A stretch of 43,247 nucleotides of DNA from positions 1 to 43,247 of the IMG/VR virus record IMGVR_UViG_2540341091_000003. One strand, written 5' to 3'. The stretch is from a virus (Duplodnaviria; Heunggongvirae; Uroviricota; Caudoviricetes). Numbering within the stretch: the first letter of the stretch is position 1; every line of letters starts with the position of its first letter. The position numbers and the translations under genes were made by a program. Under the pieces are notes generated by a model, which was not told where the DNA came from, searched no databases, and saw only the letters and a program-made list of their open reading frames with translations. Below, in pieces: positions 9,551 to 19,057 of the stretch.

Positions 9551-10041
9551 GCATGAGTCTTTTGAATGAAGTTCAGAAATTCATTGAAGCCCATCCGGGC
9601 TGTACTTCCGGAGACATTGCGGATGCTTTTGCAGGTTACTCACGGCAGCGCGTTCTGCAGTCAGCAAGCAAGTTACGTCAGAGTGGGCGTGTGGCTCACC
9701 GTTGTGAAGGGGATACACGCAGACATTTCCCGCGCCTGACTGAGAGAGCGCAGGAGCCGGAACCACAACCAGTTCGTGAAACCAGACCTGTGCGCAATTT
9801 CTATGTCGGCACTAACGATCCACGGGTGATTTTGTGCCTGACCCGCCAGGCTGAAGAACTGGAGTCCAGGGGCCTATACCGTCGTGCTGCAACGGTGTGG
9901 ATGGCGGCATTCCGTGAAAGCCACTCCCAGCCAGAACGAAACAATTTTCTGGCGCGTCGTGAGCAGTGCTTACAGAAAAGCAGCAAGCGCGCTGCATCGG
10001 GTGAAGAGTGGTATCTGTCAGGGAATTACGTGGGGGCTTAA
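9547..10041 (+). CDS. PerC-family-like transcriptional regulator
   Basis: C-terminal half ...LTRQAEELESRGLYRRAATVWMAAFRESHSQPERNNFLARREQCLQ... resembles the PerC/Pch motif as I remember it; unverified. Confidence 0.45.
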   Translation: MSMSLLNEVQKFIEAHPGCTSGDIADAFAGYSRQRVLQSASKLRQSGRVAHRCEGDTRRHFPRLTERAQEPEPQPVRETRPVRNFYVGTNDPRVILCLTRQAEELESRGLYRRAATVWMAAFRESHSQPERNNFLARREQCLQKSSKRAASGEEWYLSGNYVGA

Positions 10042-10694
10042 TGAGTAATAAATATTGCCAGGCGCTGGTGGAACTGCGGAACAAACCAGCCCATGAACTG
10101 AAGGAAGTGGGCGATCAGTGGCGCACGCCGGACAACATTTTCTGGGGAATTAACACCCTGTTTGGCCCGTTTGTTCTGGATCTGTTCACTGACGGTGATA
10201 ACGCCAAATGTGCTGCGTATTACACGGCGGAAGACAACGCGCTGGCGCATGACTGGTCAGAACGTCTTGCGGAGCTAAAAGGTGCTGCCTTTGGTAATCC
10301 CCCATACAGCCGCGCCAGTCAGCATGAGGGGCAATACATCACCGGCATGCGTTACATCATGAAACATGCCAGTGCCATGCGTGATAAGGGCGGGCGCTAT
10401 GTTTTCCTGATCAAAGCTGCCACCAGCGAAGTGTGGTGGCCGGAAGATGCAGATCATATTGCTTTTATTCGCGGGCGTATTGGTTTTGAACTGCCTGCCT
10501 GGTTTATCCCGAAGGATGAGAAGCAGGTGCCGACAGGCGCTTTCTTCGCTGGTGCTATTGCTGTTTTCGACAAGACCTGGAAGGGACCGGCAATCAGCTA
10601 CATCGGGCGCGATGAACTTGAGGCATGTGGTGAGGCGTTTCTGGAGCAGGTTCGTCAGCAGGCGGAAAAACTGGTCAGGGAGATGGCGGCATGA
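10041..10694 (+). CDS. Phage N6-adenine DNA methyltransferase (Dam-like, orphan)
   Basis: ...AAFGNPPYSRA... (NPPY motif IV) in a ~217-aa protein; start ATG 10041 overlaps the upstream stop (TAATG). The track ORF begins at an upstream alternative start (10008). Confidence 0.8.
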   Translation: MSNKYCQALVELRNKPAHELKEVGDQWRTPDNIFWGINTLFGPFVLDLFTDGDNAKCAAYYTAEDNALAHDWSERLAELKGAAFGNPPYSRASQHEGQYITGMRYIMKHASAMRDKGGRYVFLIKAATSEVWWPEDADHIAFIRGRIGFELPAWFIPKDEKQVPTGAFFAGAIAVFDKTWKGPAISYIGRDELEACGEAFLEQVRQQAEKLVREMAA

Positions 10695-11017
10695 CGACGT
10701 TAACTCAATGCCAGCAGCAGGTGCTGGATATGCTGATTTCTTATCAGAAAGAACGTGGTTTCCCGCCAACCAATCAGGAGGTGGCAACCATGCTGGGATA
10801 CCGTTCGGTGAATGCAGCGGTGGAGCATCTTCGTGCGCTGGAGAAAAAAGGCGTCATCACGATAAAGCGTGGCGTGGCCCGGGGGATAACGCTTCATACC
10901 GCGGTGAAGGACGACGACAGCGAGGCGGTCGGGATTATCCGCTCACTGCTTGCCGGTGAGGAAAACGCCAGGCTGCGTGCAGCCCACTGGTTACATGAGA
11001 GGGGCCTGAAAGTATGA
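10691..11017 (+). CDS. Small DNA-binding protein with LexA-type N-terminal winged-helix
   Basis: ...LTQCQQQVLDMLISYQKERGFPPTNQEVATMLGYRSVNAAVEHLRALEKKGVI... resembles the LexA N-terminal DNA-binding domain; no peptidase domain. Confidence 0.5.
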   Translation: MTTLTQCQQQVLDMLISYQKERGFPPTNQEVATMLGYRSVNAAVEHLRALEKKGVITIKRGVARGITLHTAVKDDDSEAVGIIRSLLAGEENARLRAAHWLHERGLKV

Positions 11018-12233: not shown

Positions 12234-13229
12234 GTGACCGTGAGAGCACTACTGACCCCTGAAATTGCCCCGCGTATGGGGATCGTATTGTTCAGACCTG
12301 GTTCAGAGCTGATGCCCCTGTTTATGCAGGGGCGTGTCCTGCTGGAGCCTGAGCCGGAACGTTATTCATCTTTTGCCAGTGGTGCCGTTCCGGCGGCATC
12401 ACAACCGCTGGCGGATGATCCTGTCGTTCGGGCCGTGTTCCGCAATGAGGCAGTGATCCGTCGTGCTGGTGGCGTGGAATGTCTTGAAAGCTGGTTACTT
12501 CGTGAAAAAGGCTGCCAGTGGCCTCATTCCGACTGGCACAGCGAGAACATGACAACAATGCGACACGCGCCGGGCGCAATCCGTCTGTGCTGGCACTGCG
12601 ATAACCAGCTGCGCGATCAGTTCACGGAACGGCTGGAATCAATGGCAACGGATAACTGTGCCCGCTGGGTGTTGTCTGTTGTGCGTCGGGATCTCGGTTT
12701 TGATGACAGTCACGTTGTGACAATGCCGGAACTGTGCTGGTGGCTGATTCGTAATGACCTGGCGGATGCCTTACCGGAAAGTGCAGCCCGTAAGGCACTG
12801 AGATTACCGAAGCCTGTTGTGCCGTCTGTCACCCGGGAAAGTGACCTTGTGCCTTCGGTTCCTGCCACCAGCATCATCCAGGATAAGGCGAAAAAGGTGC
12901 TGGCGCTGAAAGTGGATCCGGAGTCGCCGGAGTCTTTTATGTTACGCCCAAAACGTCGCCGCTGGGTTAATGAAAAGTACACGCGCTGGGTTAAGACACA
13001 GCCGTGTGCATGTTGTGGAAAGCCCGCTGATGATCCCCACCACCTGATAGGTTACGGTCAGGGTGGAATGGGAACAAAAGCGCATGACCTTTTTGTGTTG
13101 CCTTTGTGCAGAAAGCATCACGACGAGCTGCATGCGGATACCGTGGTATTTGAAGAAAAGTATGGCTCTCAGTTGGAGCTGATATTTCGTTTTATCGATC
13201 GTGCGCTGGCAATTGGCGTGCTGGCCTGA
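12234..13229 (+). CDS. Phage protein with C-terminal Cys/His-rich (HNH/DUF968-like) domain
   Basis: ...CACCGKPADDPHHLIGYGQGGMGTKAHDLFVLPLCRKHHDELH... metal-binding motif; GTG start. Confidence 0.5.
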   Translation: MTVRALLTPEIAPRMGIVLFRPGSELMPLFMQGRVLLEPEPERYSSFASGAVPAASQPLADDPVVRAVFRNEAVIRRAGGVECLESWLLREKGCQWPHSDWHSENMTTMRHAPGAIRLCWHCDNQLRDQFTERLESMATDNCARWVLSVVRRDLGFDDSHVVTMPELCWWLIRNDLADALPESAARKALRLPKPVVPSVTRESDLVPSVPATSIIQDKAKKVLALKVDPESPESFMLRPKRRRWVNEKYTRWVKTQPCACCGKPADDPHHLIGYGQGGMGTKAHDLFVLPLCRKHHDELHADTVVFEEKYGSQLELIFRFIDRALAIGVLA

Positions 13230-13231
13230 TT

Positions 13232-13612
13232 TTGTGGAGAAAGTTGATGCGTGATATTCAAATGGTTCTGGATCGTTGGGGAGCATGGGCGGCGAGTGAT
13301 AGTTCAGGAGTAGACTATTCTCCTATAGCTGCTGGGTTTAAAGGGCTTCTTCCCTACACAAGCAAAACACGTCAGGCTTGTTCAGATAGTGATGCATTAA
13401 TTATTGAAGGTTGTCTTGCTCGTCTAAAGCAAAAAAAGCCAGATGAGCACTCGCTGCTTGTGGCACATTATTTATACAGAATATCCAAGCGTAAGATTGC
13501 AAAGGTGCGTGGAAAGGATGAAAAATTGGTACGCATAGAAATACAACTAGCCGAAGGATTTATTGATGGTTGCCTTTCAATGTTGGATGTTAACCTTGAA
13601 ATGGACGCTTAG
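13232..13612 (+). CDS. Late-gene antiterminator Q-like protein
   Basis: 126-aa protein at the end of the early-right operon, immediately upstream of the lysis/late region; family call by position and general resemblance only. Confidence 0.5.
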   Translation: MWRKLMRDIQMVLDRWGAWAASDSSGVDYSPIAAGFKGLLPYTSKTRQACSDSDALIIEGCLARLKQKKPDEHSLLVAHYLYRISKRKIAKVRGKDEKLVRIEIQLAEGFIDGCLSMLDVNLEMDA

Positions 13613-13647
13613 GGTTGCACAGGTTGGCCCCATATGAGGCCAACCTG

Positions 13648-14109
13648 TCACAAGTGGGGGAAGATTTTTCGTAACACTAACCAACACCTTCCGAAGGTAT
13701 ATAGCGAAATTATAAGGGAGGATAAGCCTAACAGTATGAATAGGAAATCAATAGGTTTGCCCGCAACAATAACATCATCTGGTAGAAACATCGCTATCAA
13801 TGGAAATATACATGCGACGATGAGAGTTAACCCTGTTGAAAGTAATCGATTTACCAGAGTTGGTAACACGTTGTTTTGCTTAAGGGCATTAATTGCTCCT
13901 TCCTTATCGCTGTTTGCACTACTAAATATAGATATTGCAGCCAGAACAAAACCAAACAGGATGCCTGATATAGTCGAGAGCACCCCCGCTGTTGTGAGTA
14001 CGTCAGCATGCTTCATCGGTTTAAACAGTTTTGTCGCTGCATAGGTCAACAGAATCCAGAGGACGCATTTCCAGAGAAAAGTGGCTAATTCTCTCATTGT
14101 GTCCTCCAT
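13648..14109 (-). CDS. Small integral membrane protein, four predicted TM helices (likely start at internal ATG 14095-14097 preceded by GGAGGA)
   Basis: Four hydrophobic segments (LWKCVLWILLTYAATKLF; VLTTAGVLSTISGILFGFVLAAISIF; LSTGLTLIVACIFPLIAMFL; IDFLFILLGLSSLIISLYTF); 9-bp gap to the upstream gene; AT-rich. Confidence 0.7.
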   Translation of the reverse strand: MEDTMRELATFLWKCVLWILLTYAATKLFKPMKHADVLTTAGVLSTISGILFGFVLAAISIFSSANSDKEGAINALKQNNVLPTLVNRLLSTGLTLIVACIFPLIAMFLPDDVIVAGKPIDFLFILLGLSSLIISLYTFGRCWLVLRKIFPHL

Positions 14110-14118
14110 GCTTGGTTA

Positions 14119-15060
14119 TTAGTCTCTGCTAGCGAGCTCATACTGTGCAAGATAGTTCGCGTTATCAATTTTAGCAGATATCATCGCCGTTCTGATATCA
14201 GAATCGGATGGATAACCGCTTTTGACAATGATTGTCTTTGTACTGACCAATACTTGGTCAAGTAGACTTTTGGGCGTTCTATTGGATGGCTCGGTTACAT
14301 CAATTTTTTTAATTTTTAGACCTCCAGAACCTTTTGGAAAAAGTTCAAGTAGTTCCTTAATAGCATCGGTGACAGAAGTTTTTAGATAGTTAAAACCTTG
14401 TTTTTTCGGGCGAATCCGACCTCGCATATTTAATCTTAGATGCGACCCGCCCATACCAACAACCATGTCAATAATTTCATTAGCTAAAGGGTTTTTAATC
14501 TTATAATTAGCTTTGTTAAAGTTTCTTGGAGCAGCAACTATAAGATCGAAACTACGTAGGATATTTCCGTCCTCAAGCAGTTCCTTCATGCTCTCTTGTT
14601 TCCAAATGGCTTCAAAAGTCACGCTTTTTAAATCAGTTTTGTTATACAAAATGAATGCCAGATCATTTACTTTGGGCCCTATATGGTTGAGGGTCATAGC
14701 TAATAAATCCGTTTCGTAGTAATAGATAAAATATGTTCTTTCAACTACAGAATCTTTATCATTTAAAGGAATTGTTCTCTCACTACCTGTAGCATCCTCG
14801 ATGAACGGTAGTAGGCATTCCCTTCTCCACGATACGTAACCAAAGTAACATTGCAGTGTGGTATCTTTTTGAAGAATAACTAACTTTAACCCTCGATTTG
14901 GGGTGTCTGTTGTGTAAGTTATTGGAAAAGTTACAGTATCTGCTGTGGTCATTTGCTCAAAGGCTAGTTTTGCAGCAGATGTGCCATCTTTTTTGCTTCC
15001 ATTACCAGTGAAAAAACCAACTCTCACTCGCCTAGTTTTATTCTTATTTTCTGTACTCAT
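14119..15060 (-). CDS. Hypothetical soluble protein, 313 aa, no recognisable family
   Basis: Long uninterrupted ORF on the strand opposite to all flanking phage genes; low GC; basic C-terminal half; no Walker A or nuclease motif found by eye. Confidence 0.75.
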   Translation of the reverse strand: MSTENKNKTRRVRVGFFTGNGSKKDGTSAAKLAFEQMTTADTVTFPITYTTDTPNRGLKLVILQKDTTLQCYFGYVSWRRECLLPFIEDATGSERTIPLNDKDSVVERTYFIYYYETDLLAMTLNHIGPKVNDLAFILYNKTDLKSVTFEAIWKQESMKELLEDGNILRSFDLIVAAPRNFNKANYKIKNPLANEIIDMVVGMGGSHLRLNMRGRIRPKKQGFNYLKTSVTDAIKELLELFPKGSGGLKIKKIDVTEPSNRTPKSLLDQVLVSTKTIIVKSGYPSDSDIRTAMISAKIDNANYLAQYELASRD

Positions 15061-15327
15061 TATCGATCCGAAATAATTTTAGCAACCGTGTGAAAAATAC
15101 AACAAAAAAAGAGGAAATCATTAGCGCGGTCCGCAAAAAACATTGTAATCTGTTAAGAGTGGTTACTTCGCCACACAACTTAAACCCGCCGCTGAGCGGT
15201 TTTTTTGTACCTGTAAACCTGGTGCAGTACAGTAAACACGCTGGTGGTCGTGAATACTGGCTTTTTATCTTGCTGGCTTTTTAGACAAGAGTTATTGGTA
15301 TGTCATGTTAACCAGAAGGGAAAAAAC

Positions 15328-15531
15328 ATGCTAAAACAGCAAGATATGACAGAAACCGCCGCCGCAGTCCTTCATTTCTTACCTGCTGACAAGTGGGTAA
15401 CGCCACGCATGATGACGAGAACTACCGGAGTAAGCGAAGCCCGGTGCCAGTTAATACTGACTCAGTTAGTTCTGGCGGGTCTGGCGAAGGATAACGGCGG
15501 GTACGGGAATAAATTCAGACGCTGCCAGTAA
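15328..15531 (+). CDS. Small putative DNA-binding protein (67 aa) upstream of the methyltransferase
   Basis: ORF with AAGGG RBS; MLKQQDMTETAAAVLHFLPADKWVTPRMMTRTTGVSEARCQLILTQLVLAGLAKDNGGYG resembles a winged-helix fold; the track ORF starts further upstream at 15244. Confidence 0.45.
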   Translation: MLKQQDMTETAAAVLHFLPADKWVTPRMMTRTTGVSEARCQLILTQLVLAGLAKDNGGYGNKFRRCQ

Positions 15532-15681
15532 TGGCGGTTTCCTGCTGTGAAAATGGGCGGCTGGTGGGTGTTGGTAGCACCTGCCAGCCATTCGCTCATG
15601 CCTACTGGTCACAAGCGAACCACGGCCCACTGCTTTAGCGCAAAAGCAGAGTGAGCCTACCAGAGTTACGCTTACTGATCC

Positions 15682-16734
15682 ATGAAAAATACTGTAAAAA
15701 TAAACAGTGTTGATTTAATCAACGCTGATTGCCTGCATTTTATTCAGTCCCTGCCTGATGATTCCATTGACCTGATTGTTACCGATCCGCCTTACTTCAA
15801 AGTGAAACCTAACGGTTGGGACAATCAGTGGAAAGGGGACGAAGATTACCTTAAGTGGCTGGACCACTGTCTGGCCCAGTTCTGGCGGGTGTTAAAACCT
15901 GCCGGAAGCCTTTACCTGTTCTGTGGGCATCGCCTGGCATCTGATATTGAGATCATGATGCGTGAACGTTTCAACGTGCTTAACCATATCATCTGGGCGA
16001 AGCCGTCCGGACGTTGGAATGGGTGTAATAAAGAAAGTCTGCGCGCATATTTTCCTGCCACAGAGCGCGTTCTGTTTGCTGAACATTACCAGGGGCCATA
16101 TCGCGGCAAAAGTGACGACTATGCGGCAAAAGAAAGGGAACTCAAACAGCACATAATGGCACCGCTGATATCGTATTTCAGGGATGCTCGTGCCGAACTG
16201 GGTATAACGGCAAAACAAATTGCCGAAGCCACAGGTAAGAAAAATATGGTTTCCCACTGGTTTGGTGCCAGTCAGTGGCAGTTGCCGAATGAGGCTGACT
16301 ATCGGAAGTTACAGGCACTGTTTTCCCGTATAGCGGCAGAGAAGTTTCAGGAACAACAACTGGAACAACCACACCACCAGCTGGTGGCATCTTATGATTC
16401 ACTGAATCGCAAATATTCTGAATTGCTGGATGAGTTTAAATCTCTCCGGCGCTATTTCTCCGTATCAGTCTCCGTGCCTTATACCGATGTCTGGACGCAT
16501 AAGCCCGTTCAGTTCTACCCGGGTAAACATCCGTGCGAGAAACCGGCGGATATGCTCCGGCAAATAATCAATGCCAGTAGTCGACCTGGTGATCTGGTTG
16601 CTGATTTCTTTATGGGATCCGGTTCCACAATAAAAGCAGCAATGGCGCTGGGGCGTCGGGCGTTAGGTGTTGAACTTGAGTCAGAGCGGTTTAATCAGAC
16701 GGTGAAAGAGGTAAGTGAACTGGTGGGGAAATAA
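15682..16734 (+). CDS. DNA methyltransferase, beta-class N6A/N4C (DPPY motif), orphan
   Basis: ...DLIVTDPPYFKV... (motif IV) near the N-terminus and ...DLVADFFMGSGSTIKAA... (SAM-binding motif I) near the C-terminus; no adjacent restriction endonuclease gene recognised. Confidence 0.85.
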   Translation: MKNTVKINSVDLINADCLHFIQSLPDDSIDLIVTDPPYFKVKPNGWDNQWKGDEDYLKWLDHCLAQFWRVLKPAGSLYLFCGHRLASDIEIMMRERFNVLNHIIWAKPSGRWNGCNKESLRAYFPATERVLFAEHYQGPYRGKSDDYAAKERELKQHIMAPLISYFRDARAELGITAKQIAEATGKKNMVSHWFGASQWQLPNEADYRKLQALFSRIAAEKFQEQQLEQPHHQLVASYDSLNRKYSELLDEFKSLRRYFSVSVSVPYTDVWTHKPVQFYPGKHPCEKPADMLRQIINASSRPGDLVADFFMGSGSTIKAAMALGRRALGVELESERFNQTVKEVSELVGK

Positions 16735-16810
16735 TTCTGGTGGCCACGTTGCGTGGCCTTTTTATTTCCAACACAGCACCCGCAAATATCGCGAGGTGAG
16801 AGATGACGAA

Positions 16811-17137
16811 ATGCCTCATAACCCAAATACCTGGCTGGACTTGGTCCAGAGCTGGTGGCGTGGAGACACACCGCTGGGTGCAGTGATTATGTCGATTGTT
16901 ATGGCTGGTTTACGTATCGCCTATTTTGGCGGTGGTGGCGGCTGGAAGCGAAAAACACTCGAAATTCTACTCTGTGGCGCTCTGACGCTGACTTTTGCAT
17001 CCGCTCTTGAGTATGTCGGATGGCCTAAATCACTATCTGTTGCCATTGGTGGTGGGGTGGGGCTGATCGGTGTCGATGCTATTCGTGGGGCTGCAATGCG
17101 AGTAATCGGTAACAAATTTGGTGGCTCTAAGGAGTAA
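16811..17137 (+). CDS. Holin (lambda S-like, class I)
   Basis: Start set at internal ATG 16811; 108-aa product with hydrophobic segments and a charged C-terminus, immediately upstream of the endolysin. Confidence 0.65.
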   Translation: MPHNPNTWLDLVQSWWRGDTPLGAVIMSIVMAGLRIAYFGGGGGWKRKTLEILLCGALTLTFASALEYVGWPKSLSVAIGGGVGLIGVDAIRGAAMRVIGNKFGGSKE

Positions 17138-18706: not shown

Positions 18707-19057
18707 ATGCCCCTACGAACCCCAAAAGCCTGCCGTGTTCGCGGCTGCCGCCATACCACAACTGACCCGTCAGGCTATTGCGAAAGCCACAAAAGCGAGG
18801 GCTGGAAGCAATACAAGCCAGGACAATCCCGTCATCAGCGCGGTTATGGTTCGAAATGGGATGCTATCCGTGAACGTGTGCTGAAGCGTGACAAAGGCCT
18901 GTGTCAGTTATGTCTGCGTGCTGGTGTGGTGCGTGAGGCGAAAACCGTTGACCACATCATCCCTAAAGCGCATGGCGGCACAGATGCCGACAGTAATCTG
19001 CAGAGCCTGTGCTGGCCGTGTCATAAGGCGAAGACGGCCCGTGAACGGCTGAGGTGA
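18707..19057 (+). CDS. HNH endonuclease (terminase-associated)
   Basis: ...CQLCLRAGVVREAKTVDHIIPKAHGGTDADSNLQSLCWPCHKAKT... HNH motif; located just upstream of the small terminase. Confidence 0.85.
   Translation: MPLRTPKACRVRGCRHTTTDPSGYCESHKSEGWKQYKPGQSRHQRGYGSKWDAIRERVLKRDKGLCQLCLRAGVVREAKTVDHIIPKAHGGTDADSNLQSLCWPCHKAKTARERLR

Follow-up and report, generated by a model that had tools for sequence, protein, structure and literature searches.

M.EcoGII is in wide use for chromatin footprinting and for the labelling of DNA or RNA. As shown by Murray et al. 2018 (PMC5778455), this enzyme methylates adenine in any context in double-stranded DNA, single-stranded DNA and RNA, and both M.EcoGI and M.EcoGII are silent in the lysogen. 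According to a study that included reconstructed ancestors, neither M.EcoGII nor any of these ancestors is site-specific in methylating DNA and RNA, and M.PflMI, the closest relative with site specificity, shares 27% identity (PMC11551740). A second system for comparison is that of phage Mu, in which Com, a small zinc-finger RNA-binding protein, binds the structured mom leader and activates translation of mom, whose toxic product modifies adenine in DNA (PMC6483171). In Mu-like prophages, the place of mom behind the com homologues is taken by non-specific adenine methyltransferases (hin1523, hia5, nma1821), and Com sites have been proposed there (PMC3299994). Here, we analyzed IMG/VR virus record IMGVR_UViG_2540341091_000003 (positions 1 to 43,247; this whole stretch of 43,247 nucleotides (nt) is referred to as the window), a prophage of the Escherichia coli lambdoid type, in which the gene for a 350-residue methyltransferase of the M.EcoGII family (15682-16734, + strand) follows a small gene encoding 67 residues (15328-15531, + strand; ATG start, with GAAGGG 7-8 nt upstream). 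The 150-nt spacer that separates the two carries a conserved, covarying RNA structure. Both open reading frames (ORFs) lie between an antisense two-gene module and the holin gene, as an initial annotation of this DNA had placed them.

The assignment of the methyltransferase to the beta class, made in the initial annotation from its motif order, is borne out. Motif IV (DPPY, residues 35-38, nt 15784-15795) precedes motif I (FMGSGST, residues 310-316, nt 16609-16629), PF01555 (N6_N4_Mtase) matches residues 29-341 with an E-value of 1.2e-42, and the nearest solved structures are the beta-class enzymes M.RsrI, M.MboIIA and CcrM. PADLOC returned generic methyltransferase models only. The protein is identical at 285 of 348 positions (82%, 63 substitutions) to the enzyme of the C227-11 (E. 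coli O104:H4) prophage and at 282/349 (81%) to the published M.EcoGII sequence, the latter taken from a machine-read (optical character recognition) copy in the PMC11551740 supplement that agrees with the C227-11 enzyme; identity to the reconstructed ancestor Anc291 is 309/348 (89%). The window enzyme is a member of the M.EcoGII family, a beta-class N6-adenine DNA methyltransferase, and by homology the window allele probably methylates adenine without site specificity. The gene itself is mostly ordinary: it belongs to a known family, is very common and sits in its usual place, without a hidden restriction partner. It is the structured leader ahead of it that merits follow-up and, to a lesser degree, the small winged-helix gene.

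The five-helix RNA leader of the methyltransferase mRNA occupies positions 15554-15675 on the + strand (covariance-model span 15542-15684, 148 bits). Helix P1 (15554-15558/15625-15629) closes a three-way junction with P2 (15559-15570/15578-15589) and P3 (15591-15600/15610-15619). These are followed by P4 (15631-15637/15642-15648), which has a GCGC-type loop, and by P5 (15651-15657/15669-15675), which ends 6 nt before the methyltransferase ATG. The spacer folds at -63.9 kcal/mol (z-score -3.1), and in a six-way alignment it is visibly better conserved at the nucleotide level than the central coding part of the small ORF. The helices were defined by eye on 51 diverse sequences. In the MAFFT alignment, 84% of cells were paired, as opposed to 33-43% when the partners were slid, and double changes were present in 21 pairs versus 9-12 in the slid controls; none of 500 shuffles reached the observed values. 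A covariance model built from this first alignment gave an alignment of 62 sequences in which 26 of the 41 pairs show compensatory changes and 86% of cells are paired, values that were likewise reached by 0/500 shuffles. In P2, for example, GGCUGG/CCAGCC becomes GAUCGG/CCGAUC in Lonsdalea and GGCAGA/UCUGCC in Yersinia, and N15 and phiKO2, whose methyltransferases are 56-60% identical, form the same hairpins from different sequences. The structure is specific to the mRNA strand, since G-U pairs are frequent and the reverse strand scores at most 16 bits.

The leader is also fixed in position. The covariance model finds one + strand match per locus, always ending at the methyltransferase ATG, and a single match in the window. 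A short exact motif from the 5' end of the leader retrieves at least 120 IMG/VR contigs; where there is enough downstream sequence, the methyltransferase ATG lies 130-136 nt past the motif start in 107 of 110 contigs, the three exceptions being two chance matches inside coding sequence and one truncated leader. The truncated leader, in IMG/VR contig 2865311109_000001, is cut after P3 and followed by an unrelated gene of 421 codons, and is the only true motif found without a methyltransferase after it. Rfam 15 gave no match in 15532-15681, whether at E <=1 over 4.5 kb or at E <=10 over 521 nt, and a literature text search with the leader sequence found no paper. Going by Rfam 15 and the searchable literature, both the leader and the small winged-helix gene are undescribed. 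Two further elements were considered and not adopted. A 33-codon upstream ORF starting at a conserved AUG in P1 was rejected, as its stops and frames are not conserved across the 62 sequences, and pairing of the P5 loop (AUCAG) with the tail before the start codon (CUGAU) into a pseudoknot is not claimed, as the loop varies between U and C without compensation and a single locus (L054) fits.

The small ORF is a real conserved gene. The 67-residue protein matches phrog_331 with an E-value of 4.6e-26 and has 150 homologues, among which several bear the name 'TrmB family transcriptional regulator'. Among 60 distinct alleles, 57 of which encode 62-67 residues, the first and second codon positions of the motif CQLILTQ..AGL are invariant and the third vary freely. 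The first 11 codons are almost invariant at the nucleotide level. The RefSeq version of the gene starts at GTG 15244 and encodes 95 residues (15244-15531). We favor ATG 15328 as the start because the N-terminus MLKQQDMTE and the Shine-Dalgarno (SD) sequence are conserved and the alleles are almost all 62-67 residues long. Some alleles are mosaic, joining an N-terminal half of the 63-residue type to a C-terminal half of the 67-residue type (P0052 and P0054, compared with P0093 and the window), a pattern that points to recombination within this 200-nt gene.

An AlphaFold (AF2) model predicts that the small protein is a compact winged helix (mean pLDDT confidence 87.4, pTM 0.75), in line with the winged helix-turn-helix character that had been suggested for it from sequence. 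The modelled elements are a helix at residues 4-17, one strand residue at 24 where a full first strand would be expected, helices at 26-33 and 37-49, and strands at 53-55 and 63-65 that form a beta-hairpin. Foldseek returned generic winged-helix matches only (TrmBL2, IclR, Rrf2, the SelB RNA-binding winged helix and Zalpha), with E-values of at least 5e-3 and template modelling (TM) scores of at most 0.84. Binding of Z-DNA or Z-RNA, which the likeness to Zalpha (TM 0.84) might suggest, was not adopted, given these weak E-values and the fact that small winged helices look alike. The protein has one invariant cysteine (C40) and a variable C-terminal one, and no Cys4 site. No Pfam or NCBIfam family matches it, Xre/HTH_3 included, nor does any PADLOC model.

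Across one genome per species of Enterobacterales, a homologue of the small gene lies directly 5' of the methyltransferase in 56 of the 78 informative loci, from E. coli to Xenorhabdus and Providencia, and it is found upstream in 94/105 informative IMG/VR contigs. Since this pairing is conserved, a functional link between the two genes is plausible. N15, phiKO2 and about 20 genomic loci keep the terminator, the leader and the methyltransferase and have no small gene. The suggestion that the small protein is a controller of the methyltransferase therefore stands in part: it is a conserved companion, but not a controller in the sense of the C proteins of restriction-modification (R-M) systems, there being no HTH_3 match, no cognate nuclease and, in a repeat search of 15050-15720, no C-box-like palindrome upstream of the small ORF, and the gene being absent from N15, phiKO2 and about 22 further loci in which the methyltransferase and its leader are present.

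Of 5,426 complete E. coli genomes, about 1,450 carry the block running from the upstream terminator to the end of the methyltransferase gene, hereafter the cassette, some of them in as many as 8 copies. The cassette also occurs in SfV (orf47/orf48), cdtI, mEp460, phiNP and Stx2c phages, and is always placed between a terminator resembling tR' of lambda and the lysis genes. The order antiterminator Q, terminator, cassette, terminator, holin is shared by the window and SfV and recurs in loci of E. coli, Salmonella and Citrobacter. In Stx2a phages, only the last ~35 codons of the methyltransferase are kept, just upstream of ileZ-argN-argO-stx2 (F765, L220:3001-3105 and about 100 other records), and the leader is lost together with the gene. 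The stx region appears, from these remnants, to have replaced most of the cassette. The methyltransferase seems to be dispensable for the phage, as the Stx2a phages retain only those terminal codons.

The surroundings of the cassette are those of a late operon. The tR'-like intrinsic terminator, found by a terminator scan, lies at 15186-15207 on the + strand and consists of a GC-rich hairpin and a T7 tract. All loci aligned have a hairpin with a T-run at this site, and the homologous site is annotated as a terminator in SfV. The 65 nt preceding it (15115-15180) are common to prophages with the same small Q type, C227-11 among them, despite differing upstream cargo. Within this stretch, 15120-15160 on the + strand is the putative site of the late promoter pR', from which a short RNA ending at the terminator would start, by analogy with lambda and Stx phages; it includes a -10-like TGTAAT at 15144-15149, then TAAGAG, and the pattern of a -10-like hexamer, N4-5 and TAAGAG recurs in distant loci. 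In the records of N15 and phiKO2, a late promoter and a terminator are annotated directly ahead of the methyltransferase, and a further terminator follows the gene. In the window, a terminator-like hairpin with a T-run, also from the terminator scan, is found between the methyltransferase and the holin (16742-16766, + strand), and its equivalent is annotated in SfV, N15 and phiKO2. No tRNA was found in the methyltransferase region, and a comparative paper on pR' does not mention the methyltransferase (PMC6266700).

One more hairpin, P0 (15521-15538, + strand), has a loop that includes the small-ORF stop codon (15529-15531). P0 folds in most loci, and changes in its arms, judged by eye in the alignments, fit the pairing. 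It was rejected as part of the core leader motif on account of its absence in Providencia and in one Rosenbergiella locus. In some relatives, P0 together with a T-run looks like a full terminator. A ribosome terminating at the stop codon of the small ORF would melt P0, which suggests that read-through coupled to translation is possible.

Taken together, these features are consistent with a lambdoid prophage whose Q-dependent late operon opens with this cassette. In the lysogen, transcripts from a constitutive late promoter would end at 15186-15207, leaving the self-toxic methyltransferase silent. Upon induction, Q-modified RNA polymerase would pass this terminator and then the hairpins at 15521-15538 and 16742-16766, so that the small protein and the methyltransferase would be made along with the lysis and head genes, late, when toxicity may be immaterial. 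Replicated phage DNA would then be heavily methylated at N6 of adenine (m6A) before packaging and may be shielded from adenine-methylation-sensitive restriction in the next host. The leader, possibly with the small protein, as Com acts on the mom leader of Mu, may set the amount or timing of methyltransferase translation. Toxic expression is most likely held back by the terminators, a weak start site and the leader, and possibly by the small protein. We put the probability of this reading as a whole, a late anti-restriction methylase tuned by its leader and independent of the neighboring module, at roughly 75%. Family membership, gene order, the conserved gene pair, the RNA structure with its fixed place and the independence from the module are shown by the analysis; the missing specificity of the window allele, the confinement of expression to the late phase, the protection against restriction and any regulation by the leader or the small protein are the parts that we infer.

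There is no SD sequence before the methyltransferase ATG (GCUUACUGAUCCAUG), and P5 sits where one would be. By analogy with Mu, we favor a leader that governs either the translation of the methyltransferase mRNA or its fate, the winged-helix protein being a possible, non-essential partner. The leader, of roughly 125 nt, may be the target of the 67-residue protein, in a translational control of the Com/mom kind made from unrelated components; a sensor of a metabolite such as S-adenosylmethionine (SAM) or S-adenosylhomocysteine (SAH); or an autoregulatory site that the methyltransferase reads or even methylates to m6A. That it represents a new class of cis-regulatory RNA metering a self-toxic, promiscuous methyltransferase is a tentative proposal, to which we give somewhat less than even odds.

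Several observations weigh against the account given here. The window allele differs from M.EcoGII at 18% of positions, and an altered specificity may be conceivable on that basis. The start AUG and the A-rich first codons are unpaired in the minimum-free-energy fold, so the leader is no obvious occluding switch. The leader occurs without the small gene in N15, phiKO2 and the roughly 20 loci noted above, and the small protein, if it acts on the leader, is therefore not essential to it; in Xenorhabdus and Photorhabdus, conversely, the small gene is retained and the leader is shortened. The shuffle control for the helices gives no true probability, as its input is a set of related, mosaic sequences. 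Finally, a consensus promoter scan did not call pR', the position of which is putative.

The alternative that survives best is that the small protein is a DNA-binding transcription factor, acting with a logic like that of C proteins, which would bind upstream of its own gene and switch both its own transcription and that of the methyltransferase. The predicted winged-helix fold and the TrmB family names of its relatives would suit such a role, as would a candidate binding site. A non-coding box, CTTGCTG-N10-12-CAAGAGTTATTGGTATG (also given as CTTGCTG-N10-12-CAGAGTTAYCTGTRTG), at 15269-15302 on the + strand is nearly invariant from E. coli to Xenorhabdus and Providencia; it includes a -35-like TTGCTG and lies 25-60 nt 5' of the small gene across Enterobacterales. 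The box, however, lacks palindromic symmetry and has a poor -10, no promoter was called there by the scan, and the protein does not match Xre/HTH_3. The motif CMAGAGTTAY occurs once ahead of each ORF, against 0.17 expected, but it was defined after both sites had been seen, and the second copy (CAGAGTTA) is not retained in Providencia leaders; a repeated operator before both ORFs was rejected on these grounds. Q-modified polymerase, moreover, would read through regardless of the small protein. We regard a transcription factor of this kind as doubtful.

At the 5' edge of this box, TATCTTGCTG (15266-15275) is complementary at 10 of 10 positions to 15337-15346, which are codons 4-7 of the small ORF, enclosing the SD sequence and the ATG. 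This holds in E. coli-type loci, with one compensatory change (locus L043), whereas Xenorhabdus and Providencia do not keep the complementarity. Folding of the small-ORF leader (15208-15365) is not better than that of shuffled sequences (z-score -1.3).

A metabolite-sensing riboswitch, responding for example to SAM or SAH and coupling synthesis to methyl-donor supply without any protein, is less probable still than a transcription factor. The leader has the generic riboswitch trait of being a conserved, covarying structured 5' untranslated region, here of a SAM-dependent enzyme, and it persists where the small gene is missing. Its P1-P2-P3 three-way junction has highly conserved unpaired nucleotides, and two hairpins stand beside the start codon. 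On the other hand, no Rfam 15 riboswitch class matched even at E <=10, no alternative terminator or anti-SD pairing is evident, and the predicted fold leaves the start codon unpaired. We consider a riboswitch improbable.

It is very improbable that the spacer is functionless and conserved only because a single mosaic module has lately spread by horizontal transfer. In E. coli, many copies do show 95-100% identity, and the alleles are mosaic, as such a spread would produce. Compensatory changes nonetheless keep the helices at methyltransferase identities of only 55-66% (Lonsdalea, Ewingella, Hafnia, Yersinia, Providencia, N15 and phiKO2), and the strand-specific G-U pairs, the low score of the reverse strand and the better conservation of the spacer than of the central coding part of the small gene all speak against this reading.

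The anti-restriction reading preferred here treats the cassette as separate from its neighbors. The initial annotation had proposed a functional link, such as self-protection, between the methyltransferase and the antisense module next to it (13648-15060, - strand; outside the cassette), and this is not supported, because in other phages the same slot holds unrelated cargo or none. The slot lies between Q and the tR'-like terminator, at 13613-15185 in the window and at L004:2474-4211, L009:1964-4000, L015:3200-4000 and L002:2395-2643 in the comparison loci. In C227-11, it contains an unrelated antisense pair (308 and 182 residues) with no detectable similarity to the window module, and the C227-11 small protein is 67/67 identical to that of the window, although the methyltransferases are only 82% identical. 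An unrelated antisense gene or pair is found in mEp460_4F5. Small-gene alleles of 63 or 64 residues (~50% identical), followed by the 350-residue methyltransferase, come after a 483-residue AAA_15/AAA_21 ATPase in other E. coli, after a 139-residue ORF on the + strand in Salmonella, and after nothing in SfV, where the slot is empty. A small gene of the same family and a 350-residue methyltransferase follow the slot in all of these, and the leader was confirmed wherever it was searched for. The module itself is present in 71 of the E. coli genomes surveyed (80% coverage criterion). The cassette is independent of the antisense module, which is interchangeable cargo.

It is scarcely credible, then, that the methyltransferase and the two module proteins make up a restriction-like or toxin system in which the methyltransferase protects and its loss is lethal. 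The cassette and the module are adjacent in the window and in 59 E. coli genomes, with nothing beyond adjacency to join them, whereas genomes with the cassette outnumber those with the module about 20-fold. The module lies on the opposite strand, probably upstream of the late promoter, and has no nuclease family or fold, and M.EcoGII-family enzymes are silent in lysogens (PMC5778455) and would therefore give no standing self-protection. The description of the enzyme as an orphan was right as far as the family and fold searches of both neighbors go, and recognition of the M.EcoGII family removes the suggestion of a hidden restriction-like system. Deletion of the methyltransferase in a lysogen, with lethality as the readout, is unlikely to be informative, because M.EcoGI and M.EcoGII are silent in the lysogen (PMC5778455) and Stx2a phages manage with ~35 codons of the gene.

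The module consists of a gene for a 313-residue DUF6731-like protein (14119-15060, - strand) and one for a 153-residue membrane protein (13648-14109, - strand). PF20505 (DUF6731) is present in homologues of the 313-residue protein, which is itself a divergent member of that family and is always paired with a membrane protein of about 150 residues. A 47%-identical homologue has the same partner in the same place after Q. No nuclease family or fold was found in either protein by Pfam/NCBIfam, PADLOC or structure comparison, and no PADLOC model matched them. The AlphaFold model of the 313-residue protein (pLDDT 79) has a weak match to RdgC alone as its best in the PDB (E-value 9e-4, TM 0.32), and on this a role as a nuclease was rejected. 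A literature search found no paper on the DUF6731 protein. The pair is a candidate uncharacterized accessory or defense pair of prophages. With cargo that is mostly uncharacterized, the slot between Q and the late promoter may be a good hunting place for prophage-borne defense functions.

Upstream of the module are a DUF968/HNH gene (12234-13229) and the antiterminator Q (13232-13612, PF06530). On the other side of the cassette, a holin of the lambda family (ORF 16715-17137, PF05106) is followed by lysozyme and then Rz; the RefSeq holin is 336 bp, which places its start at ~16802. An HNH endonuclease gene (18707-19057) adjoins that for the P27-family small terminase subunit and is of the usual packaging-associated type, not a restriction partner of the methyltransferase. 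As had been noted in calling the M.EcoGII-family enzyme the second methyltransferase of the window, a first one, of the Dam family (PF05869), is encoded at 10008-10694, in the early/nin region outside the late operon. The 108-residue ORF after it (within the stretch 10008-11017) has the LexA DNA-binding domain (PF01726) alone, without the protease domain.

The wider interest of the locus lies in the way lambdoid phages cope with a methyltransferase that poisons the cell and, when methylation is excessive, apparently harms the DNA as well. The native locus of the much-used M.EcoGII has a conserved partner gene and a covarying RNA structure, neither of which is apparently described in the M.EcoGII papers searched. 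If the leader or the small protein does control translation, this could explain why the enzyme is difficult to express.

Classical Dam enzymes are site-specific for GATC. Phage orphans of the Dam type (PF05869) share with the window enzyme that they are orphan adenine methyltransferases thought to counter restriction; they belong to another family, with another motif order, and the one in the window is encoded in the early/nin region. C proteins are Xre-type helix-turn-helix dimers that bind palindromic C-boxes and time nuclease expression. The C proteins of type II R-M systems likewise are small proteins of a DNA-binding type encoded just upstream of an R-M-type gene, whereas the window protein is a predicted winged helix with no HTH_3 match, no C-box and no nuclease. 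With the pR'-6S-tR' region of lambda and StxS of Stx phages (PMC7547250), the window shares a probable constitutive late promoter, a terminator that would be passed only by Q-modified polymerase, and accessory genes between tR' and the lysis genes. In contrast to those promoter-proximal short RNAs, the window leader lies downstream of tR' and is tied to the methyltransferase.

The closest relative is the M.EcoGII/M.EcoGI system of C227-11 (PMC5778455), with 82% identity over the full length and the same DPPY...FxGxG order. The M.EcoGII locus in that prophage stands in the same place after Q and a terminator, with the identical upstream gene of 67 codons and the same leader RNA, although the cargo behind Q is different and tRNA genes follow the cassette where the window has the holin. 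Searches of the M.EcoGII papers, short of a full reading, found no mention of the small gene or the leader. The closest match in layout is the com-mom arrangement of Mu, where a small gene (~62-67 residues) and a structured 5' mRNA region also precede a self-toxic, late adenine-modifying gene with a broad anti-restriction effect; in Mu-like prophages, the modifying enzyme is a non-specific adenine methyltransferase as well. Mu Com, however, is a Cys4 zinc finger, whereas the window protein is a predicted winged helix with no such site, and the window type of leader also occurs without its small gene, unlike com-mom. Neither the leaders nor the methyltransferases are related in sequence, so the likeness is one of function and not of homology. 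If the leader or the winged-helix protein does control translation of the methyltransferase, evolution would have reached the com-mom solution of Mu a second time, independently, in the lambdoid locus.

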